From NCBI GenBank assembly GCA_023396915.1, contig JAEWUV010000001.1, positions 21,206 through 85,205 on the forward strand: a DNA stretch of 64,000 bases. The letters run 5' to 3'. This document shows positions 9,926-53,241 of the stretch, in pieces. Under the pieces are notes generated by a model. That model was not told where the DNA came from, did not search any database, and saw nothing but the letters and a program-made list of their open reading frames with translations. The translations under genes and the position numbers were made by a program. This DNA is from Candidatus Parcubacteria bacterium. GTDB lineage: Bacteria > Patescibacteriota > Microgenomatia > UBA12405. The stretch's first letter is position 1. Each line of letters starts with the position of its first letter.

Positions 9926-9954
9926 AAGTCGTATTTTAACATATAAAAAGTTAA

Positions 9955-10040: not shown

Positions 10041-10051
10041 AAGTTTGCTTC

Positions 10052-10170: not shown

Positions 10171-10213
10171 CTAATTTATTTTTTTAGTCATTAGAAGTTA
10201 GTTATTTTTATTT

Positions 10214-14721: not shown

Positions 14722-17007
14722 TTAAATTATTCCACTATCTAGTAAATCGTCAGGAGTAGGTTCGTTGCTGTTTGTTTTATTCTCAAACAAAGGCGTCGGT
14801 TTTTTTGCTAATTGTGGCGGTTGGGGAATATTGGTCTCTTCTGTTTTTACAAAAATCGGTTTTTGTTTTTGTTCTGGTTCTAGTACCTCCATTTTAGGTG
14901 GTACAAATCTGTCTTGTTTTTCTTGACTATCCAATCTAATCTCTCCTGATAAATTAGGCTTTTTAACCTCAGCTTTTTCTAACTCATCAATCTTTTTTTG
15001 AAGTATATCTTCTACTTCATTTTTTTGAACCTCTTTACTTTCCTCTGAACTTTCACTTTTTGGAGTTTCAGTCAGAGGCTGATTAACCACTGGCTGAGGA
15101 GCTGGAATTTCAGCTTTTGGTTGAGGAACTGGAGTCTCAGTCTTTGGCTGAGGAGTTGGAGTTTTTTCAAGTGTTTCCAATTTTCTTTTTCTCAAAACCT
15201 CTTCCGGGTCAGAAGTAATTAATTGATGTTCTTCCTCTGAAGCAATAACTTCTACTGCTACATGGTTCTGTCCAGCAAAAAAGAGACCTTGGCCTTTATC
15301 AGCGGTTAATAATAATTGTTTTTCTCCTTCACTTAAATAAAATACCTCACCCACCTGATCAATTGCCGCCGCGTGTTGTTTAAGTAAAATCTGAATCGAA
15401 CTATTAGTTACAATTTCTTTTCCGTAAGTACTCTTTAAAAAATCATTAACATCCTGAGTAATTGTAGTCACACCCAAATAATATTTTCTACCTCTTTTAA
15501 CTACCCCTCTTAAAAACTGAGCCGAATCTTCGTATTGCATCATATACCAAGCTTCATCTACCACTAAAATCCTTTTCTTTAATGTCTTTTTAACTATGGT
15601 CCAAATATAGTCCAAAATAATATGCATCGCTACTGGCCTCAAAGTTTCTTCTAGATTTTTTATCCCAAACACCACAAATTGATTGGTTAAATTAACTGTA
15701 GTTTTTTGATTAAAAATACCCGCAAACGACCCTTTAATATATTTTTCCATCCTAGCAGCTATCATTTGGGCTTTTTCTTCCTCTCTTCCTATTAAAGCTT
15801 TATAAACATCCTCAATCAAAGGTGGCTCTTTATTTTGGGTTTCTGGGTCTGGGGTTATCCCTTTTGCTTTATAAGCATCCATCAAAGCCTTATCTAAAAT
15901 AGACTCTTCCATTGGATCTAATGCCCCCAACATTACCTTCATTAATTTATGGACCGAAAGAGTTTTACTGTTCAAAGCATTCTCTCCTTCCTCTTCTACC
16001 AAAGACAAATCCATTGGGTTTATTTTCGACTCTTCATTGTAGCCAAAAGCAATATATTGCCCTCCGGCCGCATCGGCCAAGTCCTTATATTCGTTTTCAG
16101 GATCTATTACAATTACTTCTGTTCCAAACATCAAAGATCGCAATACTTCCAACTTAATCATATAAGACTTTCCTACGCCTGAGGTAGCAAAAACCACTGA
16201 GTTGTAGTTCGGCATGGAAAATCGGTCAAAAATTATTAACGATCCATTATGGGCATTAATCCCATACATTACTCCCTTATCGTCAGACAAATCAGAAGAT
16301 ACAAATGGAAAAGTTGTTGCCAACGAAGTGGTGTCCATATTTCTGGTTATTCCCAATCTGTCACTATTAGCCGGTAAACAAGTTATAAAACCATCTTCCA
16401 TCTGCAAAGTTGCTCTTTTACTCACTACCAACAAAGACCCTAATGCCGCCTCTAAATTTTTATTAATCCTATCCAAATCCTCTTTAGAATCTGCTGAAAT
16501 ATTTATATAAAGCCCAAACTGAAAAAACCTTTCTTCTCCTTTTACTAAATCTGCTTGTAAATTCAAAGCGTCTTCAAGCTTTGCTTGTGTTGCCGGATTT
16601 ACCAATCGACCACGTTGGATATCAGTACTTAATTCCGCCTCCATTTCTGTAATTTTGCGTCGTAAATCATCTAAAATCGCCTTGCCATCAGTTGGATAAA
16701 TATACATCGAGATATTCAGTGTCCAATCAAAATTAATCAAAGAAGACAGCCAATTCATCCCGACAAACCTTGGATAACCGGATACAAATAAGGTTCGAAA
16801 ATATTTATCACCAATTCTGACATGGTTAAAATCAACTTCCAAAGATGATGGGGCAATTATATCTTTAATCGAAACTAATCCATCGGAAAAATCTCTTTTT
16901 TTAGTATTATCAACAACTCCAGATTCCTCTGTTTTTTCCTTAGAATTACCCTTGTTTTCCACAGCCACAGTTTTTGGTTTTCTAATTATATTTTTCAATA
17001 AATCCAT
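14722..17007 (-). CDS. virB4: VirB4/TrsE/PrgJ-family type IV secretion ATPase (C-terminal 761-aa portion) with a P/Q/K/E-rich disordered tail.
   Basis: IAPSSLEVDFNHVRIGDKYFRTLFVSGYPRFVGMNWL is the CagE_TrbE_VirB N-region. Walker A is FATSGVGKS and Walker B is ILVVDEAWYMM. The tail has PTPQPKTETPVPQPKAEIPAPQP repeats. Confidence 0.85.
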   Translation of the reverse strand: MDLLKNIIRKPKTVAVENKGNSKEKTEESGVVDNTKKRDFSDGLVSIKDIIAPSSLEVDFNHVRIGDKYFRTLFVSGYPRFVGMNWLSSLINFDWTLNISMYIYPTDGKAILDDLRRKITEMEAELSTDIQRGRLVNPATQAKLEDALNLQADLVKGEERFFQFGLYINISADSKEDLDRINKNLEAALGSLLVVSKRATLQMEDGFITCLPANSDRLGITRNMDTTSLATTFPFVSSDLSDDKGVMYGINAHNGSLIIFDRFSMPNYNSVVFATSGVGKSYMIKLEVLRSLMFGTEVIVIDPENEYKDLADAAGGQYIAFGYNEESKINPMDLSLVEEEGENALNSKTLSVHKLMKVMLGALDPMEESILDKALMDAYKAKGITPDPETQNKEPPLIEDVYKALIGREEEKAQMIAARMEKYIKGSFAGIFNQKTTVNLTNQFVVFGIKNLEETLRPVAMHIILDYIWTIVKKTLKKRILVVDEAWYMMQYEDSAQFLRGVVKRGRKYYLGVTTITQDVNDFLKSTYGKEIVTNSSIQILLKQHAAAIDQVGEVFYLSEGEKQLLLTADKGQGLFFAGQNHVAVEVIASEEEHQLITSDPEEVLRKRKLETLEKTPTPQPKTETPVPQPKAEIPAPQPVVNQPLTETPKSESSEESKEVQKNEVEDILQKKIDELEKAEVKKPNLSGEIRLDSQEKQDRFVPPKMEVLEPEQKQKPIFVKTEETNIPQPPQLAKKPTPLFENKTNSNEPTPDDLLDSGII

Positions 17008-19285: not shown

Positions 19286-19313
19286 ATTTAATTCTACCTT
19301 AATCTATTTTTTA

Positions 19314-19365
19314 AGCCCTCCCTTTTTCAAGGGAGGGTGCCCGATAGGGCGGGTGGGTTTAATTC
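19314..19365. repeat. Composite GC-hairpin element, copy D (agCCCTCCCtttttcaaGGGAGGGtgCCCGatagggCGGGtgggtttaattc), immediately upstream of the 5'-3' exonuclease start.
   Basis: Shares hairpin-1 architecture and the gggtgggtttaatt tail with copy C at 25641. Confidence 0.65.
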
Positions 19366-19379
19366 TGCTAAACTACATC

Positions 19380-24796: not shown

Positions 24797-25639
24797 ATGC
24801 CTGAGCTTCCCGAAGTCGAAACAGTCCGTCTCTTTTTAGACAGCCATATTTTAAATAAAACCATTTCTAATATCGAGATTTTAAACACTAAGTCTTTTGT
24901 CGGCGATCCAAAATTAGCTCTTAACCAAAAAATAATTTCTACATCCCGTCTAGGTAAACAACTTTCAATTCATCTAAAAAATGGTCTAATTCTTCTTTTC
25001 CATCTCAAAATGACCGGTCAGATTATTATTGGCGATTCAGTTTTAGGTCATCCTACCCCAAAAGAAAACAAGTCTCATCTACCCAATAAATCTACTCGTC
25101 TCATTTTCACCTTTTCCGATAGCACTAAACTATTTTTCAACGATCAACGCAAGTTCGGTTGGGTTAAATTATTTACTCAAACTGAATTAAAAAATTTTCA
25201 GAAAAATGTTGGTGTCGATATTTTGGATTCGGCATTTACTAATAATTATTTTTACAACCAAATCCAAAAAACCTCCCGAGCTATCAAATTAGTTTTACTT
25301 GATCAATCAAAATTTGCCGGCATTGGTAATATCTATGACAATGATGCTTTGTTTTTAAGCCATATTCACCCCGAAACTTCAGCCAATAAATTAACTAAAA
25401 ATCAATCTCAAAAACTTCATCAAAATTTAGTCGATTTAATGAAAGAATCACTGTTTCATGGTGGTTCTACCGCCAAAGATAATAAATATATTCACCCCGA
25501 CGGTTCTGTTGGTCAACATCAATATTTCTTTCGGGTTTATCAAAGAGCAGGGGAACCTTGTCTTGTCTGTAAAACGCCTATTAAACGAATAAAAATCGGT
25601 GGTCGGGGTACTTTCTTTTGTCCCCATTGTCAGAATTAA
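24797..25639 (+). CDS. mutM: Formamidopyrimidine-DNA glycosylase (Fpg/MutM).
   Basis: MPELPEVETVR N-terminus (catalytic Pro2, Glu3) and C-terminal zinc finger CLVCKTPIKRIKIGGRGTFFCPHCQ. Confidence 0.9.
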   Translation: MPELPEVETVRLFLDSHILNKTISNIEILNTKSFVGDPKLALNQKIISTSRLGKQLSIHLKNGLILLFHLKMTGQIIIGDSVLGHPTPKENKSHLPNKSTRLIFTFSDSTKLFFNDQRKFGWVKLFTQTELKNFQKNVGVDILDSAFTNNYFYNQIQKTSRAIKLVLLDQSKFAGIGNIYDNDALFLSHIHPETSANKLTKNQSQKLHQNLVDLMKESLFHGGSTAKDNKYIHPDGSVGQHQYFFRVYQRAGEPCLVCKTPIKRIKIGGRGTFFCPHCQN

Positions 25640-25640
25640 A

Positions 25641-25693
25641 AGCCTCCTTTTTTAAGGGAGGTCCCGATTTATCGGGGGTGGGTTTAATTTTCC
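25641..25693. repeat. Composite GC-hairpin element, copy C (agCCTCCttttttaaGGGAGGTCCCGATttATCGGGggtgggtttaattttcc), between mutM and the iscRS fusion.
   Basis: Two consecutive hairpins followed by the gggtgggtttaatt tail. May act as the mutM terminator and/or the isc leader. Confidence 0.65.
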
Positions 25694-28989: not shown

Positions 28990-29448
28990 ATGTTTCTAGT
29001 AAAAGCTGCTTACGCTCAATGCCCGGTTTGTATTGTCACCGTTGGGGGGGGGATGATTTTGGCCAAAAAACTTGGTATTGATGATTTTTTGGTTTCTCTT
29101 TGGATTTCAGGACTCAACACGGCTATCTCTTTTTGGCTAGCTCAAAAAATAAAAAATAAATTTTTTGGCAATCCAATTATCTTGTCTGTTTTAATGTTGG
29201 GAGCCACCTTGTCTTATTTTATGTTTACTGACCAAACCGGTTCTGCCAGTAATCAATTGTTTGGTCTAGATAAAATTATTTTTGGCCAATCTTTAGGTTT
29301 ATTAATTTGGCTTTTGGGTATTTTTGTTGATCGTAAAACACGTGTTTTAAATGGTGGTAAAATTCTTTTCCCTTATCAAAAAGTTATTTTCCCTCTTGGA
29401 ATTTTAACTTTACTAACTATTTTATTTAAATTAATATTTAAGTTATAA
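28990..29448 (+). CDS. Hypothetical membrane protein (152 aa, 4 TM).
   Basis: Hydrophobic segments. No motif. Confidence 0.45.
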   Translation: MFLVKAAYAQCPVCIVTVGGGMILAKKLGIDDFLVSLWISGLNTAISFWLAQKIKNKFFGNPIILSVLMLGATLSYFMFTDQTGSASNQLFGLDKIIFGQSLGLLIWLLGIFVDRKTRVLNGGKILFPYQKVIFPLGILTLLTILFKLIFKL

Positions 29449-35076: not shown

Positions 35077-35684
35077 CTCTTAAACTTTTCTCCCCACGCC
35101 TCTACCAACGAATAACAACAACCGCAATAATTTTGCTTATAGAACCCGCTGGTTTTTAAATCTTTTACAACTTTTTTCGGTATCAAAAATTTTATTCCAT
35201 ATTCTTTTTCTAGCGTCTTTCCGATTTCCTCAATTTTATTTTTATTCTGATAATGACTGGTTAATAGGGTAGTTGAAACCGCCTCAAAATTATTTTTAGA
35301 TGCATACTCAAACGTCTTTCTTAATCTCAACTCCCAACACCCATCGCATCTGGTTTTACTTTTTAATGGCTCCATTTCATCAAGGGGAGCTGTCCGCAGG
35401 ACTGAGGGGTTTTGTTTTAAAGTCTCCCTTTCTTCAAAGGGAGAAGCGGCGTAGCCGAGAGGGATTTTAGAAAACCATTCTCTTGGGCTCCAATCAGCCA
35501 CCACCAATTTAATTTTATTCTCTTCCGCTATTTTTTGAATCGCTTTTAATCTGGATAAATATTCTGCTCTCGGATGAATATTTGGATTATAAAAATAAGC
35601 CGTTACTTCAATGTCTTCATTCTTCAATGACGCCACCATTTTTACCAAACAATCCGCACAACAAGCATGAATTAGAACCTTCAT
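35073..35684 (-). CDS. queH: Epoxyqueuosine reductase QueH (DUF208) containing an in-frame insertion of about 34 codons derived from tandem hairpin repeats.
   Basis: HACCADC, YFYNPNIHPRAEYLSRL, RCDGCWELRLRKT, TTLLTSHYQNK are QueH hallmarks. The insert is GYAASPFEERETLKQNPSVLRTAPLDEMEPLKSK. Confidence 0.75.
   Translation of the reverse strand: MKVLIHACCADCLVKMVASLKNEDIEVTAYFYNPNIHPRAEYLSRLKAIQKIAEENKIKLVVADWSPREWFSKIPLGYAASPFEERETLKQNPSVLRTAPLDEMEPLKSKTRCDGCWELRLRKTFEYASKNNFEAVSTTLLTSHYQNKNKIEEIGKTLEKEYGIKFLIPKKVVKDLKTSGFYKQNYCGCCYSLVEAWGEKFKS
35369..35470. repeat. Two tandem copies of the composite GC-hairpin element (copies E1 and E2) inside queH, in frame.
   Basis: E1 is gGCTCCatttcatcaaGGGGAGCtGTCCgcaGGACtgaggggtttt. 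E2 is gtCTCCCtttcttcaaaGGGAGaagCGGCgtaGCCGagagggatttt. Confidence 0.7.
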
Positions 35685-36841
35685 TTTTTTGCCAAAAGCT
35701 CCCTTATTCCTTCTAACCCTTCTTTTGCCTCTCCGCTTTCAAAATGTTTTCTGGCCGGCTCTAACTTTTCAATCAACCAATCAGCCAAGCCATTTTTTAA
35801 ATCTAATGGGAATAATTCTCCTGATTTATAGTCTTCAATTAATTTATTAACGTTTGTATACAACAAATCACCTCCAAATTTTTCTGGTCTAGAAATTTTA
35901 AATTCACCCGTTTTTTCTCCCCAAAAGACTAAGGTTTCTACCCAATTTATTAATGGGTTAAACTCAATTTCTTGTGGTGGTCCGTATGCTTTTCTCACTT
36001 TATCCCTAATTTCATCAGGTGTGTCATGAATAAAAATTGCACTATTTGGCTTTGATTTACTCATTTTCAAACTTTCTTCAACTGCAATTTCTCTGTTTTC
36101 TTCAACTGCTTTTTTATCTTGTTTAATTTCAAAAGCTTTATCTGGTCCAGTTAATCCCGCAATCAAATTTTGGTGAATTGCAATTGGAGCAATTACTTCA
36201 CCTTTTTTATTTCTAAGTGGGTTAATAGTTAGTTTTTTGGCCACATCTCGGGCAATCACATGGGCCTTTCTTTGGTCCATTCCTGCATGAGCAATGTTTG
36301 CTTTTAAGGTAAAAATATCGGCCACTTGCAGTGGAGGATAAAACAGTGTTGACATATTTACGTCTGTCCCTTGAGTCTTACCCATAATCGAAATTGACCG
36401 TAAATTTCTGGATAAAGTTACATTACTACCTACTTCCATAAATGTTTCCCAGTGAATCAAGTTGTTTTCATATAAATCTCGTCCCATCACAAATTCAACC
36501 TGATTTTCTTCCACTCCAAAACATTTTAACGAGGCAATTAACCCTTGTTTAAAGTAATGCTCAGTTGCCCAGCGAATATTTTCCCAGTTCCCTCCAAGTT
36601 TGTTATTTAAATAAGAATGGAAATCTGCCAAAAATATCTTACATTTAATCCCAGCTTTTATAAAATCAGCAATTTTCCCCATCGACATTAATCCTGTGCC
36701 TAAGTGAATTAATCCTGAAATTTCAAATCCAATATAATGATTTATTTCAGTTCCAGATTCAATTAGCTTCCTTAAATCTTCTTCGGTCAAAACTTCCTGA
36801 CAGTTTCTGGTTATCAAATGGATTTTTTCTTCAGTAGTCAT
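35681..36841 (-). CDS. tyrS: Tyrosyl-tRNA synthetase, archaeal/eukaryal type. Probable start is MTTEEK at 36841; the track start is at 36895.
   Basis: YIGFEISGLIHLG (HIGH-like), KMSKS, RPEKFGGDL and LDLKN align closely to M. jannaschii-type TyrRS. Confidence 0.85.
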   Translation of the reverse strand: MTTEEKIHLITRNCQEVLTEEDLRKLIESGTEINHYIGFEISGLIHLGTGLMSMGKIADFIKAGIKCKIFLADFHSYLNNKLGGNWENIRWATEHYFKQGLIASLKCFGVEENQVEFVMGRDLYENNLIHWETFMEVGSNVTLSRNLRSISIMGKTQGTDVNMSTLFYPPLQVADIFTLKANIAHAGMDQRKAHVIARDVAKKLTINPLRNKKGEVIAPIAIHQNLIAGLTGPDKAFEIKQDKKAVEENREIAVEESLKMSKSKPNSAIFIHDTPDEIRDKVRKAYGPPQEIEFNPLINWVETLVFWGEKTGEFKISRPEKFGGDLLYTNVNKLIEDYKSGELFPLDLKNGLADWLIEKLEPARKHFESGEAKEGLEGIRELLAKK

Positions 36842-36852
36842 ATTTTTTAGCC

Positions 36853-37338
36853 TTATTTTTTGTAGTATTCCTTTACTTGGAACAAGACATACCAACTTAA
36901 CCCGGTTCCGATAATTAATTTTCCTAAATCCATACTCAAAAGTGCCCCGACTGCATTAATTAAAGACATCCAAAACATTATTTTCCAAACTCTTTTTTCT
37001 CTTTTAAATAATCCCGGAATAATTATTACTGCCAAAATTGCTCCTACCAACAAAAATAATATTGAAAGTGAATAAGTCAGACCAAAATGCATCCCTCTCA
37101 TAAAGTAAAACGGAGTCAACATCGAGAAACCCAAAAGTGCTAAAACCATTGGAATAGTTACTATCAAACTTAAAATCACCAAATAAGGGGCAATTTTAAC
37201 TATTACTTCCCGTACTTTTTTAGGTAATTGCCAAACTTTTTTGGTAAAAAACTCATCTAATTTTTTCTCTAAATTATTAACCATCTCGACAAAACCAGTT
37301 GCTTTTTTATTTGTTTCTTTTTTTACTTCTTTTTTCAT
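36853..37338 (-). CDS. Hypothetical membrane protein (161 aa, about 4 TM).
   Basis: Hydrophobic helices. No motif. Confidence 0.45.
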   Translation of the reverse strand: MKKEVKKETNKKATGFVEMVNNLEKKLDEFFTKKVWQLPKKVREVIVKIAPYLVILSLIVTIPMVLALLGFSMLTPFYFMRGMHFGLTYSLSILFLLVGAILAVIIIPGLFKREKRVWKIMFWMSLINAVGALLSMDLGKLIIGTGLSWYVLFQVKEYYKK

Positions 37339-39489: not shown

Positions 39490-39523
39490 TATAAATACTA
39501 AAAAATTTTTTGAATTAATATTT

Positions 39524-39570
39524 CTCCCTTTCATCAAGGGGAGATATCAATTTATTGACAGAGGGGTTTT
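39524..39570. repeat. Composite GC-hairpin element, copy F (CTCCCtttcatcaaGGGGAGatATCAATttaTTGAcagaggggtttt), ending 3 nt before the kinase ATG.
   Basis: Hairpin1 + hairpin2 + AGAGGGG SD-like tail, then tttaa and ATG. Confidence 0.65.
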
Positions 39571-39572
39571 AA

Positions 39573-40589
39573 ATGTTTAAACAAGCCCGTCTTAAATTAA
39601 CTGCCTGGTACCTTTTAATCATCACTGTCATTAGTTTATTTTTTAGTTTTTTAATTTATAATCTTGCCGACAAAGAAATTAATCGTTTTGCCGCTTCTCA
39701 ACGAAATCGAATTGAGCGTCGTTTGGTTATCCTTAACCCGGAATTACCGCCCCAACCAGTTACTATCGTCGATCAAGATCTCATTAACGAAAGTCGAGAG
39801 CGCCTTAAATTAAGCCTTTTAATAATTAATGGAATCATTATATTTTTATCCGGCAGTCTTTCTTATTTTTTGGCAGGTCTTACTCTTAAACCAATCCAAG
39901 AAATGTCCGAAGACCAAAAGCGTTTTATTTCCGATGCTAGTCATGAATTAAAAACTCCGATTACCGCCTTAAAATCTCTTTTTGAAGTTACTCTTCGTGA
40001 TAAAAAACTAAGTCTAAAAGAAGCCCAAAATGCTCTTAAATTAGGTATTGACCAAAGTAATCGTCTTACCAATCTCTCCAATTCTCTTTTAGAGCTTAGC
40101 CGTCTTGAAATAAATCATATTGCCAGTCAATTTTCACTTCTTGATCTAAAGAAAATAATTTCTGAATCCATCTCTCAAATCAAACCACAAGCTGACAAAA
40201 AAAAGATAAAAATTATTTCTCGCCTTACCTCTTCAAAAGTCAAAGGAGATCAAAACAGACTTGTTGAACTTTTTACTATCTTTCTTGATAACGCCATCAA
40301 ATATAGTCCCCAAAAAACTACCATAAAAATCATTTCTGAAAACAAAAACAAACAAGTATCGATAAAAATTATTGATCACGGTATAGGTATTGACCAAAAA
40401 GATTTAAATAAAATTTTTGATCGTTTTTATCAAATAGACAATTCTCGAACTAAAGTAAATAATTCTGGTTATGGCCTAGGACTTGCCATTGCCAAAAAAA
40501 TTATCAGCTCACACCACGGTTCCATCAAAGTTTTTAGTAAACTCAACCAAGGAAGTAAATTTATTATTACCTTGCCTCTTTTCAGTTAG
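39573..40589 (+). CDS. Sensor histidine kinase.
   Basis: 2 TM helices, H-box FISDASHELKTPITAL, G-box GYGLGLAIAKKII. Confidence 0.9.
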   Translation: MFKQARLKLTAWYLLIITVISLFFSFLIYNLADKEINRFAASQRNRIERRLVILNPELPPQPVTIVDQDLINESRERLKLSLLIINGIIIFLSGSLSYFLAGLTLKPIQEMSEDQKRFISDASHELKTPITALKSLFEVTLRDKKLSLKEAQNALKLGIDQSNRLTNLSNSLLELSRLEINHIASQFSLLDLKKIISESISQIKPQADKKKIKIISRLTSSKVKGDQNRLVELFTIFLDNAIKYSPQKTTIKIISENKNKQVSIKIIDHGIGIDQKDLNKIFDRFYQIDNSRTKVNNSGYGLGLAIAKKIISSHHGSIKVFSKLNQGSKFIITLPLFS

Positions 40590-44565: not shown

Positions 44566-44581
44566 TAAATTCTTAAAATAT

Positions 44582-44625
44582 TTCCCCTCCTTTCCTCAAA
44601 GGAGGGGAATAAGTGGTAGATTTTG
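44582..44625. repeat. GC-hairpin element copy G (CCCCTCCtttcctcaaaGGAGGGGaataagtggtagatttt). Likely a terminator for the upstream + gene.
   Basis: 7-bp GC stem with a U-rich loop, followed by a T-rich tract. Confidence 0.55.
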
Positions 44626-44675
44626 ATTTATTTTATTCTAAATCTGACTAACTGATTAACTGAAAAGCTGACAAT

Positions 44676-44969
44676 CTAATTTTTATTTTTCCCCGCCCAC
44701 AAATTCAACCCACCAATCACCATCGCCGGCATATAAATTACCCACGCTTCCAAACTCATCACCATAAAAGCTATTTCCAAAACCAGCCACAAAATCCCTC
44801 CCAAAACCTCTTTCTTCCACGAAATTATTGTCACTATTATCAATACAAAACTCGGTATCAAATGCATCATCAACGCCACCAACCATTGTTCTTCTCCAAC
44901 CACATCCACCACAAACAAACTAATAAACAAAATAAAAACTATCGATAATATCCTAGTTATTTTCTTCAT
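44676..44969 (-). CDS. Small membrane protein (97 aa, 3 TM). Last gene of the island operon.
   Basis: Hydrophobic helices. Overlaps the fic stop region. Confidence 0.4.
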
Positions 44970-45819
44970 AATAATAAGAATAATCTATTCCTTTCATAAA
45001 TATTTCCCGACTATTAATTTTATTAGTTAAAGCCTTTTTTAATAATTTTTTTATTTCACTATTATCTTTCGGGCTTTGTATCATCGCTTTTAGATAATCA
45101 TTTTTGCCTATTTTGCTCCAGTCAACGCATTTTTTTAGCTGTTTTTTAAAAATCAAATCCAACCAGATCCGGGTAGTTCTACCGTTACCTTCCATAAATG
45201 GATGAGCCAGATTCATCTCCACATATTTATCGGTAATTTGGTTAAAAGTATCTTGAGGCATTTGCTCAATCTGTTTTAGAGTATTGTCTAAAAATTGAGC
45301 CATGGCAAATTGAAACCCGCCTTTTGATATATTTTTTTGCCTGATTTGCCCGGCAAAATTATATAATCCACCAAACAAATAAGCATGGATCTGTTGCAAA
45401 CCTTTAATTGTACCGATTTCTATTTCATCTATTAAATTACTTTCAAACAAAGCATAAGCTTTTTTCTTGCTTTGCCCATCAATAGTATTGTCACTATAAG
45501 TAAACCAATCAAGAAACGACATAGATTTTTTACTCGGAATTGCTTTTACCACCTCAACAATGTCATCTTGTGAAAAACAATCAGTAGCGTATTTTTTCCC
45601 ATCTGATGCGACTAATTTCAGTTGCCTACATTTTGTAGTCAACTGATTTCCTTCTTTTTTTAATCGTGTTTTCAACACACTCCAATATTTTCGTGGATTC
45701 GCACTTTCCGTCAAAGCAGCCACGATATCAAGAACTGAAAACCACCACTTATTTTTCTCTTCATCCCAAACCGCCCGCACTTCTTTATCATCAAAAAACC
45801 GAATTGATATTTTATCCAT
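44953..45819 (-). CDS. Fic/DOC-family protein with an N-terminal BRO-N/DinD-like domain.
   Basis: Fic motif [12 protein letters not shown] (HPFx[DE]GNGR). N-terminus [34 protein letters not shown] resembles BRO-N/RhuM-N. Confidence 0.8.
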
Positions 45820-45845
45820 AATTATTCTTTAACCTATCTTAACAT

Positions 45846-46607
45846 TTATTTAATCTTTTCAACTGCCTTCACATAATTGCAGTAATCACAATCAGCACTA
45901 GATTCAGGAATTTCTTTGCTATTCAAACACTTATAAATATCCTTAATCGTTTGCTCAATCCAATCAGTCTTGCCAGTATAAGGTAGTAATTTAATATCAA
46001 ATTCCAATTTTCCATCAAAAGCCACTCTATCAGTTTTCCCGTTACAATAGACAAAATAGCCAGTATCCGACACCTCAAAACCATTTTTTCTAAATAGCCA
46101 CTGATACACTTCCATCTGTCTTTTGTATCCATCTTGCCATTCCGCATCCAAGTTTACTTCACTTTCTTTTGATGTCGATTTGTAATCTACAATTATCAAT
46201 TCATTTTTTGAATTAATCCAAACATCATCGACTGCTCCAGTAATTAACAAATTAGTTTCTGGATCCAAATAGGTAATTCCTTTAAAATTTTCTCGCCATT
46301 CATCCATTTTTGGATGTTCAAAAGGTACTGCATCCAATCCATAAGCTTTCATCAATGGGTGAGTTGTATGTTTATTTCTATGAATATCAAATTCTTTTTT
46401 AAGCAGCTTATCAACCGCTGAATTTAATGAAAAGGGGAATCCTGGTGGTTGGGCAATTCCAAGCACTCGATCCAAATAAAAACACCTTGGACATTTTATA
46501 AACAAATCAATCTTCGACCGACTTATCTTAAACGCTTGTCGGCCTGTGGCCGAGTTTTTTCCTTCATACAATCCCAGTTGTCTGTTTGGCTTATAGTATT
46601 GCGACAT
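45846..46607 (-). CDS. PD-(D/E)xK nuclease with a 4-Cys (Fe-S) cluster, Cas4/AddB-nuclease-like.
   Basis: N-terminal CPRCFYL, core IIVDYKS (D...(D/E)xK), C-terminal CDYCNY. This is the Cas4-type Cx(n)CxxC arrangement. Confidence 0.65.
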   Translation of the reverse strand: MSQYYKPNRQLGLYEGKNSATGRQAFKISRSKIDLFIKCPRCFYLDRVLGIAQPPGFPFSLNSAVDKLLKKEFDIHRNKHTTHPLMKAYGLDAVPFEHPKMDEWRENFKGITYLDPETNLLITGAVDDVWINSKNELIIVDYKSTSKESEVNLDAEWQDGYKRQMEVYQWLFRKNGFEVSDTGYFVYCNGKTDRVAFDGKLEFDIKLLPYTGKTDWIEQTIKDIYKCLNSKEIPESSADCDYCNYVKAVEKIK

Positions 46608-46662
46608 AAGCTATTTTACTCTAAGAACAAATCGTATCAAAAAATAGTTGTTAAAGATTACT

Positions 46663-47541
46663 CTAAGCAATCCTAAAAATTGCAGTATCCGAAGGCTGGA
46701 ACTCACTGTGTTTAATGTATTTCTTTAATGAAAAAAAATCTTCATTATTTGATGACAATATTTTTGGTGTAATTGTACCTTCTTTGATATGTACATCAAT
46801 ATTTTTATCTTTGCAAAATTTTATTACGTAATTTACCATAGAATTATAAAACTCTTTGACACCAACTTGATTAGAAATCATACTATTATAATTCCATCTA
46901 CCAAACACAATTTTATCCACAAATGAAATCGACTCCAAGATAGTCTTAATGTCTTGCTTTACTATATTTGATGTTGGATATGGTTCCATACTAACCCATG
47001 TTTTTAACCCAGATTTATGTAGCTCTTTTAGAGACTCTATTCTCTTTTTAATCGGAGCAGCTCCAGGTTCAAATTTCTTCCTATATTCTTCTGATAACGA
47101 AACTATTGTTGAACCATATTCGTTTAAAGAATTATATTTACTAGCGTTAATTAATTCTTTTGGATATATCCCTTTTGTTATTATTGTTGACCTTATACCA
47201 TAAGTATTTAATTTTTCTAGTATTTTCAACGTCAATTTAATAACTTCTAGTTGTTTATACATAAATGGATCAGATGAAAAACACAAAAACACACAGTGGA
47301 TTTTATTTTTTAGTCTTGGAAGTTCTTTATCCAATAATTCCATTGCATTTCCAACAATTTTTGGGGATATCCACTCATTATAACTTTTAACGACTCCACA
47401 TCTTTTTTTCATCATGTATGCATAACAGGGAAATTTACATCCATGAGAACAACCTTCGATATGATTCAATCCATAATCCGCATATTCGACATTACTTTTG
47501 TATAGAAGTGATTTACGATTTATTTTAGGTAAACTTTTCAC
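46663..47541 (-). CDS. Three-Cys-motif (CSHGCKFPC = Cx3Cx3C) radical-SAM-like protein.
   Basis: GCSHGCKFPCYAY near the N-terminus. Paired with the RlmJ/TcmP-like gene 21 nt upstream. Confidence 0.45.
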   Translation of the reverse strand: MKSLPKINRKSLLYKSNVEYADYGLNHIEGCSHGCKFPCYAYMMKKRCGVVKSYNEWISPKIVGNAMELLDKELPRLKNKIHCVFLCFSSDPFMYKQLEVIKLTLKILEKLNTYGIRSTIITKGIYPKELINASKYNSLNEYGSTIVSLSEEYRKKFEPGAAPIKKRIESLKELHKSGLKTWVSMEPYPTSNIVKQDIKTILESISFVDKIVFGRWNYNSMISNQVGVKEFYNSMVNYVIKFCKDKNIDVHIKEGTITPKILSSNNEDFFSLKKYIKHSEFQPSDTAIFRIA

Positions 47542-47562
47542 TTATTTAGTTTAGCAGTATTT

Positions 47563-48486
47563 TTACTTTGGAGTATAGTCTTCTTTATCAAACATATACA
47601 TTTGTCCTGTGTATGTGGATTTATCTTTATTTTTAAATATATGGTCTATTATTTTTTTTGCACTTGGACATCTTGATGCAAATAAAAGAAAATAGGAGGT
47701 TTCATTTTTATTCGGTCTTAACATTTGGTATACAGATAATTGATTTAATTTTGAATCAGCAAATATTTCTTTAATAATCATCAACATTAAATCTTTGTCT
47801 TTTTTACTAAAACTATCAGTTAATGATTCAATCTCATGAAGCGATTTTACAGAATTTAATAGTTTTTCTATTTTTTCTTTATTTCCATTGTTACTAATTA
47901 ATTTCTTTACATAAGCCAAAACTCTCGATGTTCCACAAATATAGTTTAATATCAAATCATTAGGGCTTTTCTCTCCACGGCTTACTATTTGTTTTATTGT
48001 TTCTTTCTTTATTTCTTTTGGTCCCCACGGATCAATAAAAAATAAAACTGGTCTATATTTTATTTTTTCAATAATATTTCCAATTTCTATATTAATATCA
48101 CCCAGTATAAGATCAATATTAACAAATTTTCTGTAAGGTTCACAAAAATTCTCCAATTCTTTAACTGATTTTTTATTTTTTTCAACAAAAATACAATTCA
48201 GCTTTACAGTTCCAGAGTGTTTCAAATAAAGAGATTTTGCATATTCTAAGGCAATTAATGGAGATCCATTTATCGAATCCATTATTCCATTATTGTGATA
48301 CATTCCTCTCCCAGCATAACAGTCTATATAATAAGCAGTTTTTGCCCATTGTTTTTGATGATTTAGATATTGAGCAAAAATAATAGTAGCCCATTTATTA
48401 AGATATTCTTTTAAAATTTCCAATTTTCTTTTAGTATGGGGTCTATTTGTTATATCCCAATAATTACTTTTATTCATAAAACACAA
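47563..48486 (-). CDS. RlmJ-like / TcmP-like protein (putative N6-adenine methyltransferase fold; 'three-Cys-motif partner protein').
   Basis: YIDCYAGRGMY, GSPLIALEYAK and LFFIDPWGPKE parallel RlmJ motifs (YLDTHAGAGRY, GSPLIA, LIDPPYE). Its start is 1 nt after the upstream RM-like gene stop. Confidence 0.5.
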   Translation of the reverse strand: MCFMNKSNYWDITNRPHTKRKLEILKEYLNKWATIIFAQYLNHQKQWAKTAYYIDCYAGRGMYHNNGIMDSINGSPLIALEYAKSLYLKHSGTVKLNCIFVEKNKKSVKELENFCEPYRKFVNIDLILGDINIEIGNIIEKIKYRPVLFFIDPWGPKEIKKETIKQIVSRGEKSPNDLILNYICGTSRVLAYVKKLISNNGNKEKIEKLLNSVKSLHEIESLTDSFSKKDKDLMLMIIKEIFADSKLNQLSVYQMLRPNKNETSYFLLFASRCPSAKKIIDHIFKNKDKSTYTGQMYMFDKEDYTPK

Positions 48487-48487
48487 T

Positions 48488-51400
48488 CTATTTTACATTT
48501 TCTTCTGTAATTTTAATTTCTTCCTCAATTTTTAAATATACTTTATCAATTCTAATTTGAATTTCTTTTGTTAATTTTAATACTGTCACCACCCTACAAT
48601 AATGTCGAATATCTTCATCTGATAAAGTTTTTTCCACCCTATCTTTAAGCCACTTATCTAATACTTGATATCCGCCAATATAATAATTCCAAATCTCAGG
48701 AGTAACATCATCAAAATATTGAGAATCATTTATATAAACACGATTGTTTTCTAGATCGTATTTTCTTTTGTTAACTTTTCCTTCTCCCTGACCAAAAAAT
48801 CTTGTAGAAGGGTTATCTAATTCTGATGAATTTAATAAATGTAGATTTATTAAATCTTCACCTAAAGAAGATAGTAATTGAAAAGTTTCTAAGTTTTCTG
48901 TAAAAGGAATCCTAGGAAAATCTATTTTTAAAAATTCTTTGTATTTCTCTCGATAGATATTTGAATAAAGAATCGCATAAATATAATAAAAAATTGCCTC
49001 ATTTGTTTGAATAAAATTACCTGATATTTTTGATGCGAATGATGGAACTTGTTGGATAAAATTTGGTAACTTTGACCAGTTGTAATTTGACGACCTAATT
49101 TTTGATTCCGACAACTCTTGTTGAGAACTGTAAATATAAAGTGGAAATGTATATGCCGAATCTTGAGCATTATCTAAATAATGAAAATCGGTTATGGTAT
49201 TTGTTATACCAAAATAATTTAAACTTAACTGACGGTTTCTTTTAGCAGATATTAATATCAAATTGTTCCGCATAAAAATATGTTTTGTAACTTCATTGCG
49301 TACTCTCCATATAGCAGATGGATGATTGAATATCCAACGATTATCAAATGGTCTATAACTGTAGTTTGAATAATATTTATTAATATTCTCAAGATTTTTT
49401 AATTTCAATTTTGTTTCAGGAATTCGTTCAGAATAAATCTTACTTAATTTAAAAGTATTTTTAATAAATTCATCATCACCAACACTGTTTATAAAACTAT
49501 TAATTTTTGTTTCGAGTTTATGTTTATCAAAATCAATCACAAAGTTATCATTCGCGGTTAGAATACCAGTACTATAAATATTAAAAATATCCGTTAAAGG
49601 TATAAACTTTTGGTATTTTTCATTACCTTCTTCATTTCTTGGAACTAAGAAATAATAAGGTTTAGATGGAATTAATTTTTGCCATTTTGTTGTTGTAATA
49701 TCATTTGATTCAAGCCATTTATATTTATCTTCACGTAAACCCCATTGATCACAATAGAATATTTGTTTAGTTTTAACAGGTGTCTTACATAATAAAACAA
49801 TAGATACTCCAGTTTGAATATCAAAAACATTTTCGTCTTTTTTACCTTCAGGTGTCTTTTCCTTTTTAAGGATACTACCGTGTAAATTAACAACATATAT
49901 TTCATTAAAAGTATTTAACATGGAATATCTCATACCACGGAAAGTTGGATTATCAAGCCAAGCATGATTAGTAATAAATCCTAAAATTCCCTGTTTATTT
50001 TGTTCAATCTTCCATTGAGAAAATCTGAAAAATTTTACATAATCATCTTGCAACCAATCTTTTTTTTCATTTAATTTTTCTCCCTCAATCTGGCGATATT
50101 CATTAATTTCCCCCAGTATCCAATCTCCTTTATTTGTAGAAACAGCTGAATAGGGTGGATTACCCATAATAACCATTACCTTTTTATTTTTTTTAACATC
50201 ATTAGCTTGACGAGATTCTTCTGATAAATCAGAAAATAATGGAAGATCCATGTGTGGAAGATTATTCAAATCAAGCGTATTAGTTAAAAAAAGATTAAAT
50301 CGTTCATACTGCCCTAATTTATATTTGTGTTCATCAAAAATCAAAGATGCTTTAATGTGTCCTAAAACATAAGGTGACATCATTAATTCAAAAGCAAAAA
50401 AATGAGGGATAATATGATTTTTTATCAAATTATTAATTCCTCCATCACCATATCTGTTTTTATATTCATCTATGGCTACTTTAATTGCTTCAATCGGAAA
50501 GGTTAATGTACCAGCAGCAGGATCAAGTAAAGTTACTGAATTACTAGCTAATCCATCCGGTCTTTTAAATTTTTTTTGAAGAATTTTATGAACTGAATTT
50601 ACTATATATTTAACTACTGGCTCCGGTGTGTAATATACTCCTCTTTTTGCCCTCTCTTTTGGATCATACTCAGCAAGAAAAGTTTCATAAAAATGGATAA
50701 TAGGATCATTACCCTTACCATTTAAATAATAATTATCAACAATCTTTGTAACATCCGTGTTTTTAAGTAATTCGGCAATATCGTCAATAATCCATTCCAT
50801 ATTTTTAGGTAAATCGTTAGATGAAATGAAACGAAATATGCTTCTTAAAACTCCAATTGTAGATGGAATAGTTTTAAAAGCATTTAAACGATTAAAATCT
50901 GATGATGATCGAAGACGAGCTGCGAATAAACCAAAAGTAATGGTTTGAGAAAACAAATTTGCAAAATCATCAAGATTTAAAGAGGATATTAAATATTCTT
51001 TGAACAGTTTATAAATTCCCTCAAGTGTTTGAGTTCCAGTTTGTGTTTCCTCTTTTAACTCCTCAATAATGCAGTTTTCTTTAAGAAAACTAGTTCTTTT
51101 AGCAAGTTCTATTGCTAAAGTTTTAGCTGTATTGATTTTTGGAGTAGAAAAAGAGAAAAATTCAGCTAATAACTTTTGGAGATATAACTCATTTTCTACC
51201 GGCGGAACAATCCCAAGCTGATTAAGGATAACAGGACGACCTATCATTACTTTATCTATTTGTTCTCCGTTGCGGTAAAGTCTAAATTCGAGAAAATTTG
51301 TCAAAATCAAATTAGGGAAAGTTTTAAGGTATCTTTGTAGTTGTTCTGTTTGTTCTATAGCGTCGAGGTTTTCAATATTTGGTTCTTTTGCTTCTATATA

Positions 51401-51607
51401 ACCAATAAGTTGATATTTCTGAGTTTGAATTCTGAAATCAGGATTTCCTGCTTCAGTTTTTTTAGGCAAAATAGTTACACTAATTTCTTTTTTATTTTGG
51501 ATTGCATAAGCCTCAATTAATTTTTTCAGATCTGGGTAATAACTTTCTTCACGAACATCTCCAGCGTTAGTAGTCGCAGACAAATCAGATAAATATTCTT
51601 TAAACAT
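48488..51607 (-). CDS. MmeI-like type IIL/IIG restriction-modification enzyme: N-terminal PD-ExK nuclease, gamma-class N6-adenine methyltransferase, C-terminal target-recognition region.
   Basis: NPDFRIQ...GYIEAKEP (PD...ExK), MTase motif I LLDPAAGTLTF, motif IV MGNPPYS. 1039 aa. Very AT-rich codon usage. Confidence 0.75.
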   Translation of the reverse strand: MFKEYLSDLSATTNAGDVREESYYPDLKKLIEAYAIQNKKEISVTILPKKTEAGNPDFRIQTQKYQLIGYIEAKEPNIENLDAIEQTEQLQRYLKTFPNLILTNFLEFRLYRNGEQIDKVMIGRPVILNQLGIVPPVENELYLQKLLAEFFSFSTPKINTAKTLAIELAKRTSFLKENCIIEELKEETQTGTQTLEGIYKLFKEYLISSLNLDDFANLFSQTITFGLFAARLRSSSDFNRLNAFKTIPSTIGVLRSIFRFISSNDLPKNMEWIIDDIAELLKNTDVTKIVDNYYLNGKGNDPIIHFYETFLAEYDPKERAKRGVYYTPEPVVKYIVNSVHKILQKKFKRPDGLASNSVTLLDPAAGTLTFPIEAIKVAIDEYKNRYGDGGINNLIKNHIIPHFFAFELMMSPYVLGHIKASLIFDEHKYKLGQYERFNLFLTNTLDLNNLPHMDLPLFSDLSEESRQANDVKKNKKVMVIMGNPPYSAVSTNKGDWILGEINEYRQIEGEKLNEKKDWLQDDYVKFFRFSQWKIEQNKQGILGFITNHAWLDNPTFRGMRYSMLNTFNEIYVVNLHGSILKKEKTPEGKKDENVFDIQTGVSIVLLCKTPVKTKQIFYCDQWGLREDKYKWLESNDITTTKWQKLIPSKPYYFLVPRNEEGNEKYQKFIPLTDIFNIYSTGILTANDNFVIDFDKHKLETKINSFINSVGDDEFIKNTFKLSKIYSERIPETKLKLKNLENINKYYSNYSYRPFDNRWIFNHPSAIWRVRNEVTKHIFMRNNLILISAKRNRQLSLNYFGITNTITDFHYLDNAQDSAYTFPLYIYSSQQELSESKIRSSNYNWSKLPNFIQQVPSFASKISGNFIQTNEAIFYYIYAILYSNIYREKYKEFLKIDFPRIPFTENLETFQLLSSLGEDLINLHLLNSSELDNPSTRFFGQGEGKVNKRKYDLENNRVYINDSQYFDDVTPEIWNYYIGGYQVLDKWLKDRVEKTLSDEDIRHYCRVVTVLKLTKEIQIRIDKVYLKIEEEIKITEENVK

Positions 51608-51656
51608 ATCCCTATTTTACCTCAAACCTCATCTTTTCTCGCGCTATACTTTACCT

Positions 51657-52178
51657 ATGGAATATTTAATTATCATTGTTTTAATGGTTGTACTTTTTAA
51701 GATTTTTTATAAACGCATTTTTATACAAGATGAATCAGAAAGTCATAATAAAAAATTTTCAAATTCATCCAAAATCACTCCAGGCAATTTTCGACTTCGT
51801 CCATCACTTTTAAATAGTAATGAACGAGTCTTTTTTGAACAACTCAAATTAGCAGTAGGGAATCAATACGATATCTATCCTCAAACTTCTTTAAGTGCTA
51901 TTTTTGAACCAATTGAACATTGGAATAACTGGGGTGATCTAAGTCGTTTGAACAAAAGAATTGATTTTGTTTTGTTTGACAAAAATACTCAAACTCCAAA
52001 GATTGCTATCGAGCTAGACGGTGACTCCCATTCTAAGTTTAAAAGTATTAAACGTGATGAATTTGTTGGCGATCTTTTTGAAAAATTTAATATTCCTTTA
52101 GTCCGCTTTAATAATGGCAATTATTCTGCCGAAGAGATTAAAAACAAACTTTCTATTTTTCAATTACTTTCTTTTTAA
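51657..52178 (+). CDS. DUF559/Vsr-like PD-(D/E)xK endonuclease-domain protein with an N-terminal TM helix.
   Basis: RIDFVLFDKNTQTPKIAIELDGDSHS...KRDEF...NIPLVRF is the DUF559/DUF2726 signature. Convergent with, and overlapping, the RhuM gene's 3' end. Confidence 0.55.
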   Translation: MEYLIIIVLMVVLFKIFYKRIFIQDESESHNKKFSNSSKITPGNFRLRPSLLNSNERVFFEQLKLAVGNQYDIYPQTSLSAIFEPIEHWNNWGDLSRLNKRIDFVLFDKNTQTPKIAIELDGDSHSKFKSIKRDEFVGDLFEKFNIPLVRFNNGNYSAEEIKNKLSIFQLLSF

Positions 52179-53163
52179 CTTTTTTCTCTACTGCTTTGAT
52201 ACTTTCCAAATAATCTTCTTCCACCGGTGACAGAGTTTTTATTTGATATTTTTTATATTCTGCCAAGGCTTTTACTTCAGCTTCAATTTTGCTGATTTTA
52301 CCGGCATTTTGTAATACAGTTCTGTCCATTGAAACCACCAACTTATCCAATTGATTTATATAATCTTCCATAGTTGTCTGTATTCCGTCAATTGCCCTCA
52401 ATTCGGCGATGTCAAAATAAGCCGATACTATATTATTTAATTTTTTAAGTTCCTGTTCGGTCAAATAATTTTTAGCCACAGTTATATCGGATTTTCTGAC
52501 TCCGTCTTTTGAAAAAGTCATCAATCCCATAAATGGTTTATCTGCATCAGCCCGTTCAGAAATTAATTCAGATGCTGTTTTTCCGTTGGCAGCATAATGA
52601 AGTTTATTTTGTACTATGGCAAAAAACTTTTTCGATTCCTGACTTTGTGGATTGTAATCAATACTGGTGGCATACAAATCTAATACTTGTCTGTACAAAA
52701 CCTTTTCACTACTACGAATATCCCGAATTCTATCCAAAAGCTCTTTCCAATAATTTCCACCACCATTATTTTTTAGTCGCTCATCATCCAAAGTAAAACC
52801 TTTAACAATATACTCGCGAAGTCGTGCCGTTGCCCATTGGCGAAAACGAGTCCCTTCTATTGAACTAACCCTATACCCAACAGAAATGATAACGTCCAAA
52901 TTGTAATGTTTTACGACATATTCTTTACCATCAGATCCAGTCCGTCGGAATTCCCGACATACTGAATTTTCTTCCAATTCTCCTTCATTAAAAATATTTA
53001 AAATGTGTTCAGTAATAGTAGATCGACCTTTATTAAACAGTTCAGCAAGCTGATCCTGATTAAGCCATACTGTTTCACTCTCTATTCGTACCTCAATTTT
53101 CGGCTGACCGCCGTCTCCTTGATAAATAATTATTTGGTTATCCGGTTGTTTATTTTTATCCAT
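52153..53163 (-). CDS. RhuM-family (DinD-like) protein.
   Basis: KIEVRIESETVWLNQDQLAELFNKGRSTITEHILNIFNEGEL...YNLDVIISVGYRV...FRQWATARLREYIVKGF matches RhuM-family hallmarks. Confidence 0.8.
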   Translation of the reverse strand: MDKNKQPDNQIIIYQGDGGQPKIEVRIESETVWLNQDQLAELFNKGRSTITEHILNIFNEGELEENSVCREFRRTGSDGKEYVVKHYNLDVIISVGYRVSSIEGTRFRQWATARLREYIVKGFTLDDERLKNNGGGNYWKELLDRIRDIRSSEKVLYRQVLDLYATSIDYNPQSQESKKFFAIVQNKLHYAANGKTASELISERADADKPFMGLMTFSKDGVRKSDITVAKNYLTEQELKKLNNIVSAYFDIAELRAIDGIQTTMEDYINQLDKLVVSMDRTVLQNAGKISKIEAEVKALAEYKKYQIKTLSPVEEDYLESIKAVEKKVKKKVIEK

Positions 53164-53241
53164 GTTTTATTTATAACCCAAATAAAACCCGAAATCAATC
53201 ACTATTGCTAATTTTTTTTATTTACTTCTATAATTAACCAA

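Follow-up and report, generated by a model that had tools for sequence, protein, structure and literature searches.

Ever since the first description of BoxC/PIT elements, it has been an open question whether intrastrand DNA triplexes form or play any part in cells; the class II intrastrand triplex is that of Hoyne et al. 2000, of Maher and of Holder et al. Here we describe a repeat of this general kind in a stretch of 64,000 nucleotides (the window; contig JAEWUV010000001.1, positions 21,206 to 85,205) from a bacterium classified as Candidatus Parcubacteria. Two adjacent copies interrupt the coding sequence of queH, the predicted gene for epoxyqueuosine reductase. They are likely to be two independently acquired members of a dispersed, triplex-type repeat family, translated as a tolerated loop of 36 residues.

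The E. coli repeats known as BoxC, PIT or TMECO have the form CCCTCNCCC-N3-6-GGGNGAGGG-N3-GGGNGAGGG and are of class II (Holder et al. 2015, PMC4666352). A TMECO single strand forms a stable triplex in vitro by circular dichroism and nuclear magnetic resonance, and PIT elements block DNA polymerase in vitro (PMC4666352). TMECO shows no promoter or terminator activity, is always intergenic in E. coli K-12 and favors neither strand; copies can form inverted pairs and go together with variability of the genome nearby, and the motif is too uniform in E. coli for covariation to be seen (PMC4666352). In RNA, purine-motif triplexes do not form, although pyrimidine-type triplexes can (PMC4666352). A precedent of another sort is provided by the Rickettsia palindromic elements (RPEs; Ogata et al. 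2000), which according to PMC10969869 are in-frame repeats of housekeeping genes.

The element of the window is 55–70 nt long. On the strand that carries its purine tail it consists of a pyrimidine arm, a T-rich loop of 4–6 nt, a complementary purine arm, a variable mini-hairpin and a G-rich tail that mirrors the purine arm. Like BoxC/PIT/TMECO, which is found in E. coli, other Proteobacteria and Cyanobacteria, it is a dispersed repeat of a few dozen nucleotides with pyrimidine, purine and G-rich mirror blocks on one strand, with loops less conserved than stems, inverted head-to-head pairs, variable flanking DNA among relatives, no associated transposase and no known function. It departs from that family in having a mini-hairpin of 13–23 nt as the second loop, where the E. 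coli element has 3 nt, and stems of 7–9 triplets that are extended by A and T in a genome of 34% GC. The TMECO pattern CCCTCNCCC..GGGNGAGGG..GGGNGAGGG is not found, the stems being of CTCCC(TT)/(AA)GGGGAG types, and only the type of copy seen at 19305 resembles TMECO. There is also a strong bias toward one compositional strand here (175 of 199 copies) that TMECO lacks; about a third of the copies are genic; and the existence of several subfamilies gives a natural three-way covariation.

With RPEs, as PMC10969869 describes them, the element shares small palindromic form, a reduced host genome with in-frame copies in housekeeping genes that are not related to each other, translation at positions compatible with the fold, and occurrence between genes as well. 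The RPEs of that account are about 100–150 bp long, belong to Alphaproteobacteria and are not described there as mirror or triplex sequences, whereas the present elements measure 55–70 nt, have a consensus of G/C blocks with a mirror block, are read in at least two frames and stand in tandem, up to three per site. REP/BIME elements and MITEs are similarly short, abundant, mostly intergenic, hairpin-forming and clustered. However, a RAYT gene accompanied by a conserved tetranucleotide at the 5′ end, as in REP/BIME elements, was not seen (transposases being covered in the window's 61 open reading frames, ORFs); unlike MITEs, it has no terminal inverted repeats around its core and no target-site duplication; and neither REPs nor MITEs have anything that corresponds to its mirror third block. 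The repeat can best be classed as a variant of the intrastrand-triplex kind with RPE-like behavior; by defining features it is not a TMECO or MITE element, by length it differs from RPEs, and as far as the 61 ORFs of the window show it is probably not a REP element.

The host gene is identified by a match to the Pfam QueH family (PF02677; E = 4e-45, 154.4 bits against a gathering score of 23.5) that falls into two stretches with the insert between them. Residues 3–72 and 108–196 align with Thermotoga maritima QueH (PDB 7lc5; E = 1.7e-25), which has no counterpart for about 35 residues. A preliminary description of this DNA had proposed that a tandem double hairpin element of about 34 codons was inserted in frame at this point, between a conserved W and an RCDGC region. 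The in-frame insertion and its site are borne out, the flanking motifs being DWSPxEWF and RCxxC, but the insert comprises 36 codons (residues 73–108) and is offset by a few residues from the earlier limits. It is made of two adjacent units of 54 nt, or 18 codons, each (Table 1), which appear on the plus strand as a direct repeat (35361–35468) with a spacing of 54 nt and 83% identity over 29 nt. The order within a unit is TTTTAA, hairpin 1 (CTCC../..GGAG), hairpin 2 and then GAGGGGTTTT or GAGAGGGATTTT. The tail gaggggtttt, noted earlier after both hairpins, is indeed present and is also the mirror copy of the purine arm of hairpin 1. On the minus strand unit b encodes K73–K90, KIPLGYAASPFEERETLK, and unit a encodes Q91–K108, QNPSVLRTAPLDEMEPLK. 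Judged by stability alone, the hairpins of the insert do not stand out, with z = −1.3 for the plus strand and z = −2.6 for the minus strand.

Seven further copies were found in the window by a scan for a CTCC..GGAG hairpin with a G-rich tail, and the nine sequences were aligned to build a covariance model. With filters off, the model retrieves exactly nine copies from the window, at E values from 6e-13 to 3e-6, and the next match has E = 0.5. The model excludes a chance resemblance. Both queH units were among the nine training sequences, so that their own scores are not independent evidence; independent support comes from the empty background together with 190 further copies outside the window that were absent from model training. 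Six of the nine window copies are intergenic, though about 92% of the window is coding. The motif GAGGGGTTTT by itself is not enriched in the window (9 observed, 8.4 expected); the signal resides in the composite architecture. Rfam and tRNA scans of the window gave no matches.

Table 1. Positions, strands and scores of queH, of the parts of its insert, and of the other family copies in the window.
Feature	Position	Strand	Score or basis
queH, predicted epoxyqueuosine reductase QueH, 203 aa	35073–35684	minus	Pfam PF02677 and 7lc5
Unit a, 54 nt	35361–35414	plus	covariance-model hit 35357–35418, 55.7 bits, E = 1e-11
Unit a, pyrimidine arm GCTCCATT	35369–35376		
Unit a, loop	35377–35381		
Unit a, purine arm AAGGGGAGC	35382–35390		
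Unit a, mini-hairpin GTCC-GCA-GGAC	35392–35402		
Unit a, mirror tail TGAGGGGTT	35403–35411		
Unit b, 54 nt, other subfamily	35415–35468	plus	covariance-model hit 35423–35469, 35.1 bits, E = 3e-6
Unit b, pyrimidine arm TCTCCCTTT	35423–35431		
Unit b, loop CTTC			
Unit b, purine arm AAAGGGAGA	35436–35444		
Unit b, mini-hairpin CGGC-GTA-GCCG	35447–35457		
Unit b, mirror tail AGAGGGATT	35458–35466		
Inverted head-to-head pair, intergenic, downstream of RNHCP-domain gene (1165–1452)	1031–1094 and 1095–1161	minus and plus	54.6 and 56.7 bits
Copy in frame in Wzy_C/O-antigen-ligase-like gene (6419–7690, minus)	7011–7078	plus	54.3 bits, E = 2.5e-11
Intergenic copy, CCCTCCC/GGGAGGG/GGGTGGG subfamily	19305–19366	plus	60.6 bits, E = 6e-13
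Intergenic copy starting at stop codon of fpg-like gene (24797–25639)	25630–25691	plus	56.6 bits
Intergenic copy between response-regulator and histidine-kinase genes	39511–39575	plus	55.9 bits
Degenerate intergenic copy	44574–44635	plus	45.4 bits

A pattern scan of one genome per species matched at least 115 stretches; among the matches listed, most lie in metagenome-assembled genomes (MAGs) of Candidatus Shapirobacteria and in MAGs labelled “uncultured Gammaproteobacteria”, and others in Microgenomates, Woesebacteria and Parcubacteria. Two sets of copies were then taken with the covariance model, 142 copies in 88 sources and 57 copies in the remaining 35 loci (individual loci are given L numbers). 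The 199 copies belong mainly to Candidatus Shapirobacteria and related Microgenomates MAGs, with up to seven in one 8-kb locus.

Conservation starts about 6 nt ahead of hairpin 1, with (A)AGACT, and ends right after GGTTT(T), where the information content drops to background. In hairpin 1, whose arms are for example TCTCCCTT and AAGGGGAGA, 97.3% of cells are paired, and four of the eight pairs are altered on both sides by compensatory changes. Hairpin 2 varies in sequence and has at least 3 bp in 124 of the 142 copies of the first set; 68 of all 199 copies show C-GNA-G, the motif of unusually stable DNA mini-hairpins. One copy (L011, 487–575) has an additional hairpin, ..GTCCTCCGAAGTGGAGGA.., nested within loop 1 of hairpin 1.

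Read in mirror orientation, the tail matches the purine arm of hairpin 1, and a change in one goes with a change in the other: the arm GGGGAGA has the tail AGAGGGG, GGGGAGC has TGAGGGG, GGGGAGG has GGAGGGG, GGGAGGG has GGGTGGG, GGAGGGG has GGGGTGG, AAAGGGGAA has AAGGGGATT, and AAAGGGAGA, the arm of unit b, has AGAGGGATT. Arm and tail were scored by the purine-motif triplet code, in which G goes with G, A with A or T, and C with T. In the mirror register 1194 of 1271 cells of the first set comply (94%), as against at most 61% in shifted registers and 1023 ± 10 cells with tails permuted among copies. The second set gives 485 of 513 cells (420 ± 6 permuted). Ascertainment bias is removed when only the 78 copies outside the scan pattern are counted, and 652 of 695 cells still comply, against 509 ± 11 and a maximum of 549 in 5000 permutations. 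In all three comparisons the observed value lies above that of every permutation. Three-way tables for individual positions read T-A·A 83, G-C·T 21 and C-G·G 17; T-A·A 104 and C-G·G 22; and C-G·G 110, T-A·T 14 and T-A·A 6. Triplets are kept equally by genic and intergenic copies (7.4 and 7.2 of 8). Those of unit a are GCT, CGG, TAA, CGG, CGG, AGG, TAT and TAT. Unit b has a perfect 9-bp inverted repeat, and its combination of arm and mirror tail, with 10 copies, is the second commonest of the family outside the seed.

Protein dimers recognise repeats that are inverted or direct; the symmetry of a mirror repeat is of neither kind, nor can it be read by Watson–Crick pairing. A mirror tail that covaries with the arm by the triplet code is what a third strand antiparallel to the purine strand would leave behind, and the covariation suggests an intrastrand DNA triplex of the class II purine motif.

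The queH site itself is variable among syntenic orthologs. It is empty in L005, which reads WFKEVKIDGDRC; a single unit occupies it in L003 (unit a) and in L008 (unit b), while the window, L011 and L007 have two (the second unit of L007 being a member of a different subfamily) and L009 has three; in L010 a remnant is left that consists of no more than the pyrimidine arm and the loop. The linker of 116 QueH orthologs measures 5–8 residues in 26 and up to 57 residues, with zero to three units, in the others; in T. maritima QueH it is about 9. The preliminary description had reasoned that a segment of comparable length in QueH homologs generally would speak against an insertion. Extra residues do occur in 90 of the 116 clade orthologs, but they comprise at least five recognisable types of element-derived peptide, from several subfamilies and in several frames, and the base state is 5–8 residues. 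The idea of an insertion holds, although such segments are common in the clade.

Unit a is 89–96% identical among four species (the window, L003, L009 and L011), with 83–94% identity at third positions, and is set off by a sharp conservation boundary from flanking queH sequence that is 74–80% identical (58–67% at third positions). L007 and L010 are 100% identical over nt 1–213 and about 375–500 and differ by a 90-nt indel at the site, with clustered substitutions beside it. On a rough neighbor-joining tree the insert state changes 20 times, compared with 23.8 for shuffled labels, and type a requires 10 changes for its 11 carriers. A single ancient insertion followed by vertical descent finds no support in the scattered insert states, although the tree is weak. 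Copy-number variation, the L007/L010 indel and the scattered states together indicate that the queH loop is a hot spot of fast turnover, with re-insertion, deletion and/or recombination between alleles as the proposed drivers.

The two units of the window differ from each other in arms, mini-hairpin and tail, each self-consistently, and each fits a different dispersed subfamily. This match to different subfamilies argues for two acquisitions rather than one duplication. A local tandem duplication of one element would account for units that are adjacent, co-oriented, equal at 54 nt and in the same frame; yet all that the units have in common is the generic family consensus, and each stands alone in another locus. 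An adaptive protein loop unrelated to repeats fares no better, given that the same DNA element is intergenic elsewhere, that the peptide is predicted to be disordered and that other orthologs use other frames. Both proposals are contradicted by the data and are extremely improbable.

About a third of copies are genic: 46 of the 142 lie, in frame, inside ORFs of at least 100 codons. At least two reading frames are used, with peptides such as QNPSV..TAPLDEREPLK, QNLSVDKSTSPLKKGRSLK and KPLS..QLPLKKGAV, and the flanks of genic copies are richer in AT than the rest of the gene (75.5% versus 66.1%). The idea that the elements are built to a length divisible by three was discarded, genic core lengths falling into all three classes (8, 8 and 15). 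With the core length unconstrained modulo 3, the frame must be kept through selection on the whole indel. Within the window the genic copies are the two queH units and the one at 7011, which bears out the earlier mention of a separate in-frame hairpin-repeat insertion into a coding sequence. That copy encodes ..NKPLSPDKSGQLPLKKGAVL.. in a frame unlike that of the queH units, in a gene that matches Pfam Wzy_C. The ortholog in L054, another Shapirobacteria MAG, has a copy with a different mini-hairpin at the matching site (6548–6615), which makes this another hot spot shared by orthologs.

In 126 of 142 copies of the first set and 49 of 57 of the second, it is the C-rich strand that carries the purine-tail form, and orientation is constant over hundreds of kilobases on large contigs. 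The sense strand of the gene carries the complementary form in 34 of the 46 genic copies. Transcription was rejected as the determinant: relative to flanking genes, 26 intergenic copies are co-oriented, 30 opposite, 9 convergent and 11 divergent. A link of the strand bias to replication may be inferred. The window contains an origin-type gene order at 7843–12949, with jag/R3H, yidC and rnpA on the minus strand and dnaA (10214–11554) and dnaN (11834–12949) on the plus strand, and a DnaA-box-like tandem, TTATCCACAAAA, lies between the last two at 11586–11613. GC skew is negative over the entire 64 kb (about −0.5 to −0.03), and the dnaA coding strand is itself C-rich.

In the protein, CCADC (residues 8–12), R112, C113, C116, C187 and C189 are invariant or nearly so in 120 orthologs, and all are kept here. 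An AlphaFold2 model made with the 120-sequence alignment and including the insert, a prediction that the preliminary description had proposed, retains the QueH core, mostly at a predicted local distance difference test (pLDDT) above 90. Residues 78–107 have no predicted secondary structure and a pLDDT below 50; the insert is placed between the helix of residues 67–73 and the helix that begins at RCxxC. A Foldseek search with the model returned T. maritima QueH as best match (7lc5, 7lc7 and 9deu; target-normalised TM-score 0.74–0.78). The identical 203-residue protein is encoded on 17 contigs from several samples. Given the predicted disorder of the loop and the retention of all invariant residues, QueH most likely tolerates the insert. 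Residues 8–12 read CCADC in all 120 clade orthologs and CCAPD in T. maritima QueH, of which the C9S and D13N mutants of the motif are in the PDB; the change may reflect a difference in metal ligands, judging by conservation and by the names of PDB entries.

The gene overlaps by 4 nt an upstream gene for a class Ib (Tyr/Trp-type) aminoacyl-tRNA synthetase (35681–36895), and the order MatE, hypothetical protein, tRNA-synt_1b (class Ib), QueH is kept in orthologous loci. If the synthetase is a tyrosyl-tRNA synthetase, the synthetase of a queuosine-modified tRNA would be coupled with an enzyme of the queuosine pathway. The earlier suggestion to look for pathway partners could be followed in part: no tgt or queA is present among the 61 ORFs of the 64-kb window.

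The observations are best explained by a triplex-type family that has multiplied in Candidatus Shapirobacteria and in related members of the Microgenomates. When single-stranded, the purine-tail strand would fold hairpin 1 and lay its tail as third strand into the major groove of that hairpin. The result would be an intrastrand triplex of the class II purine motif, built of the triplets G·G-C, A·A-T, T·A-T and T·C-G, in which the mini-hairpin serves as the second loop or connector. The family may spread by insertion via a single-stranded DNA intermediate, or its alleles may be spread by recombination; purifying selection would then remove copies that break a frame or lie in a disfavored orientation. 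The strand bias could arise from the single-stranded insertion intermediate or from selection against the fold on a long-lived single-stranded template. Genic survivors would be those in an AT-rich, loop-coding stretch with an open frame and a multiple of three. In queH, two elements would have inserted next to each other where the sequence is rich in AT and codes for a surface loop that immediately precedes RCxxC; both are open in the queH frame at 18 codons each, and a hydrophilic, disordered loop of 36 residues would result.

Several points count against parts of this explanation. The triplex is a prediction from sequence. Within subfamilies the copies share ancestry, so that the permutation statistics overstate independence and about seven arm/tail haplotypes carry the signal. 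At tail column 109, 52 of 142 copies have an A facing a G-C pair, a noncanonical triplet, although this A may lie across from the bulged G; and hairpin 1 of unit a has one broken pair, at AGG. No terminal inverted repeats beyond the hairpin and no target-site duplication were found, and no transposase, of the Y1 type or any other, is found among the 61 ORFs of the window; with these hallmarks of a transposon missing, mobility is deduced from distribution. Neither GC skew nor element orientation switches in the dnaA–dnaN region of the window, which weakens the link to replication. The insert ends 4 residues ahead of the putative metal-binding Cys motif, RCxxC. In E. coli, moreover, the TMECO triplex was not seen in double-stranded DNA or by in vivo dimethyl sulfate footprinting (PMC4666352).

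A further step would be to suppose that the single-stranded triplex fold is itself under selection, and that the family constitutes a new structured element of the Candidate Phyla Radiation (CPR) that acts in replication and re-homes to loops of housekeeping genes. The element would then be tolerated on only one template strand, or would mark that strand. The three-way covariation, the conservation above that of synonymous sites and the single orientation relative to strand composition are the grounds for this proposal, which we offer tentatively and regard as rather doubtful.

It is possible, though unlikely, that the element acts as RNA, the mRNA carrying the pyrimidine-head form as two hairpins or as a pyrimidine-motif triple helix (U·A-U, C+·G-C) that affects stability or ribosome pausing. 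The excess of the complementary form on the sense strand of genic copies fits this idea, as do the lower z score of the mRNA strand of the queH insert, the third-position identity of unit a relative to the rest of queH, the equal retention of triplets in genic copies and the ability of RNA to form pyrimidine-type intrastrand triplexes (PMC4666352). T·A-T and T·C-G, however, suit the antiparallel purine motif, and in the complementary strand they turn into A·A-T and A·C-G, neither of which belongs to the pyrimidine motif; runs of four to six C+ would need acidic pH; intergenic copies show no orientation preference with respect to flanking genes, orientation tracking strand composition instead; and no Rfam family matches. 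Less probable again is that the mirror relation reflects a protein-binding site or some other constraint on a REP/BIME-type repeat, with no triplex. Repeats of similar size in other bacteria are bound by proteins, the TMECO triplex went undetected in vivo, and the signal comes from a limited number of subfamily haplotypes. Against this stand the general consideration that a mirror repeat lacks the symmetry used by protein dimers and the finding that the equivalences G/G, A/A or T, and C/T are those of reverse-Hoogsteen triplets and are valid in one register only.

That the insert inactivated queH, leaving a gene in decay in a reduced genome, is just as improbable as a protein-binding origin of the mirror. 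The closeness of the insert to RCxxC, the lack of tgt and queA within the window and the beginning decay of unit a might be read in that way. The ORF is intact, however, with the invariant residues kept and a core predicted with confidence; inserts are present in most orthologs while the remainder of the protein is conserved; and the overlap with the synthetase gene, the synteny and the identical protein on 17 contigs speak against decay. The proposal of two independently acquired repeats, translated as a tolerated loop, remains the likely one.

If the selected fold is real, evolution itself would have supplied natural evidence for the formation and importance of intrastrand DNA triplexes in vivo. 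The seven or more arm/tail haplotypes that obey a triplet code, a strong strand bias, and genic copies that expose neutral decay make the in-cell triplex question testable by comparative genomics and a few oligonucleotides. The family would also extend to the CPR the Rickettsia phenomenon of selfish DNA within protein-coding genes, and would be a concrete source for unexplained insertions and length variation of CPR proteins. Such inserts split Pfam matches and inflate protein clusters, and they may confound ortholog alignment and binning. Literature searches for such repeats in CPR, Patescibacteria and Shapirobacteria found none.

Many MAGs filed as “uncultured Gammaproteobacteria” in third-party annotation (TPA) records are repeat-rich, among them L010, L018, L060, L089, L098 and L100 (CAZCFJ01). 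The label is probably wrong for these repeat-rich MAGs; CAZCFJ01 has queH synteny of the Shapirobacteria type. Single significant copies (29–46 bits) with full architecture occur in assemblies from outside the CPR, namely an Elusimicrobium simillimum isolate (L046) and a Ruminococcus MAG (L059), and likewise in Cytophagales (L044), Flavobacteriales (L066), Leptolyngbya (L118) and Pseudomonadales (L125). Contamination, convergence or a wider distribution could explain them.

Among the intergenic copies of the window, adjacent opposite-strand pairs like that at 1031–1161 are also seen in L014, L062 and L086, with a wider-spaced pair in L073. The 19305 copy lies between divergent genes, just upstream of a gene for a 5′–3′ exonuclease. 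In the 44574 copy the arm AAAGGAGGG faces the tail ATTTTGATT and the mirror relation is lost. In the 39511 copy the tail GAGGGGTTTT is followed by AA and then by ATG (39573), the tail ending 3 nt ahead of the ATG. A role as Shine–Dalgarno donor was considered and set aside, this being the only copy of the window directly before a start codon. An intrinsic terminator was rejected as well: most copies, on either strand, have no T-run directly after the hairpin, and PIT elements are without terminator activity in E. coli.

No family copy occurs in the 45–64 kb part of the window. A block of low GC content (0.26–0.30) at about 44950–53200 encodes Fic, a PD-(D/E)XK nuclease, a radical SAM protein, a Type ISP restriction-modification enzyme of 1039 residues, DUF2726 and RhuM, and looks like an acquired defense island. 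A run of nine G residues at about 29044–29052, near the start of the ORF at 28990–29448, is a candidate slippage or phase-variation tract in this 34% GC genome. A 27-nt tandem repeat of 2.7 copies, TGGCTGAGGAGCTGGAGTCTCAGCCTT, occupies 15091–15162 in a TraG/AAA_10-type ATPase gene (14722–17007) and is in frame by length.

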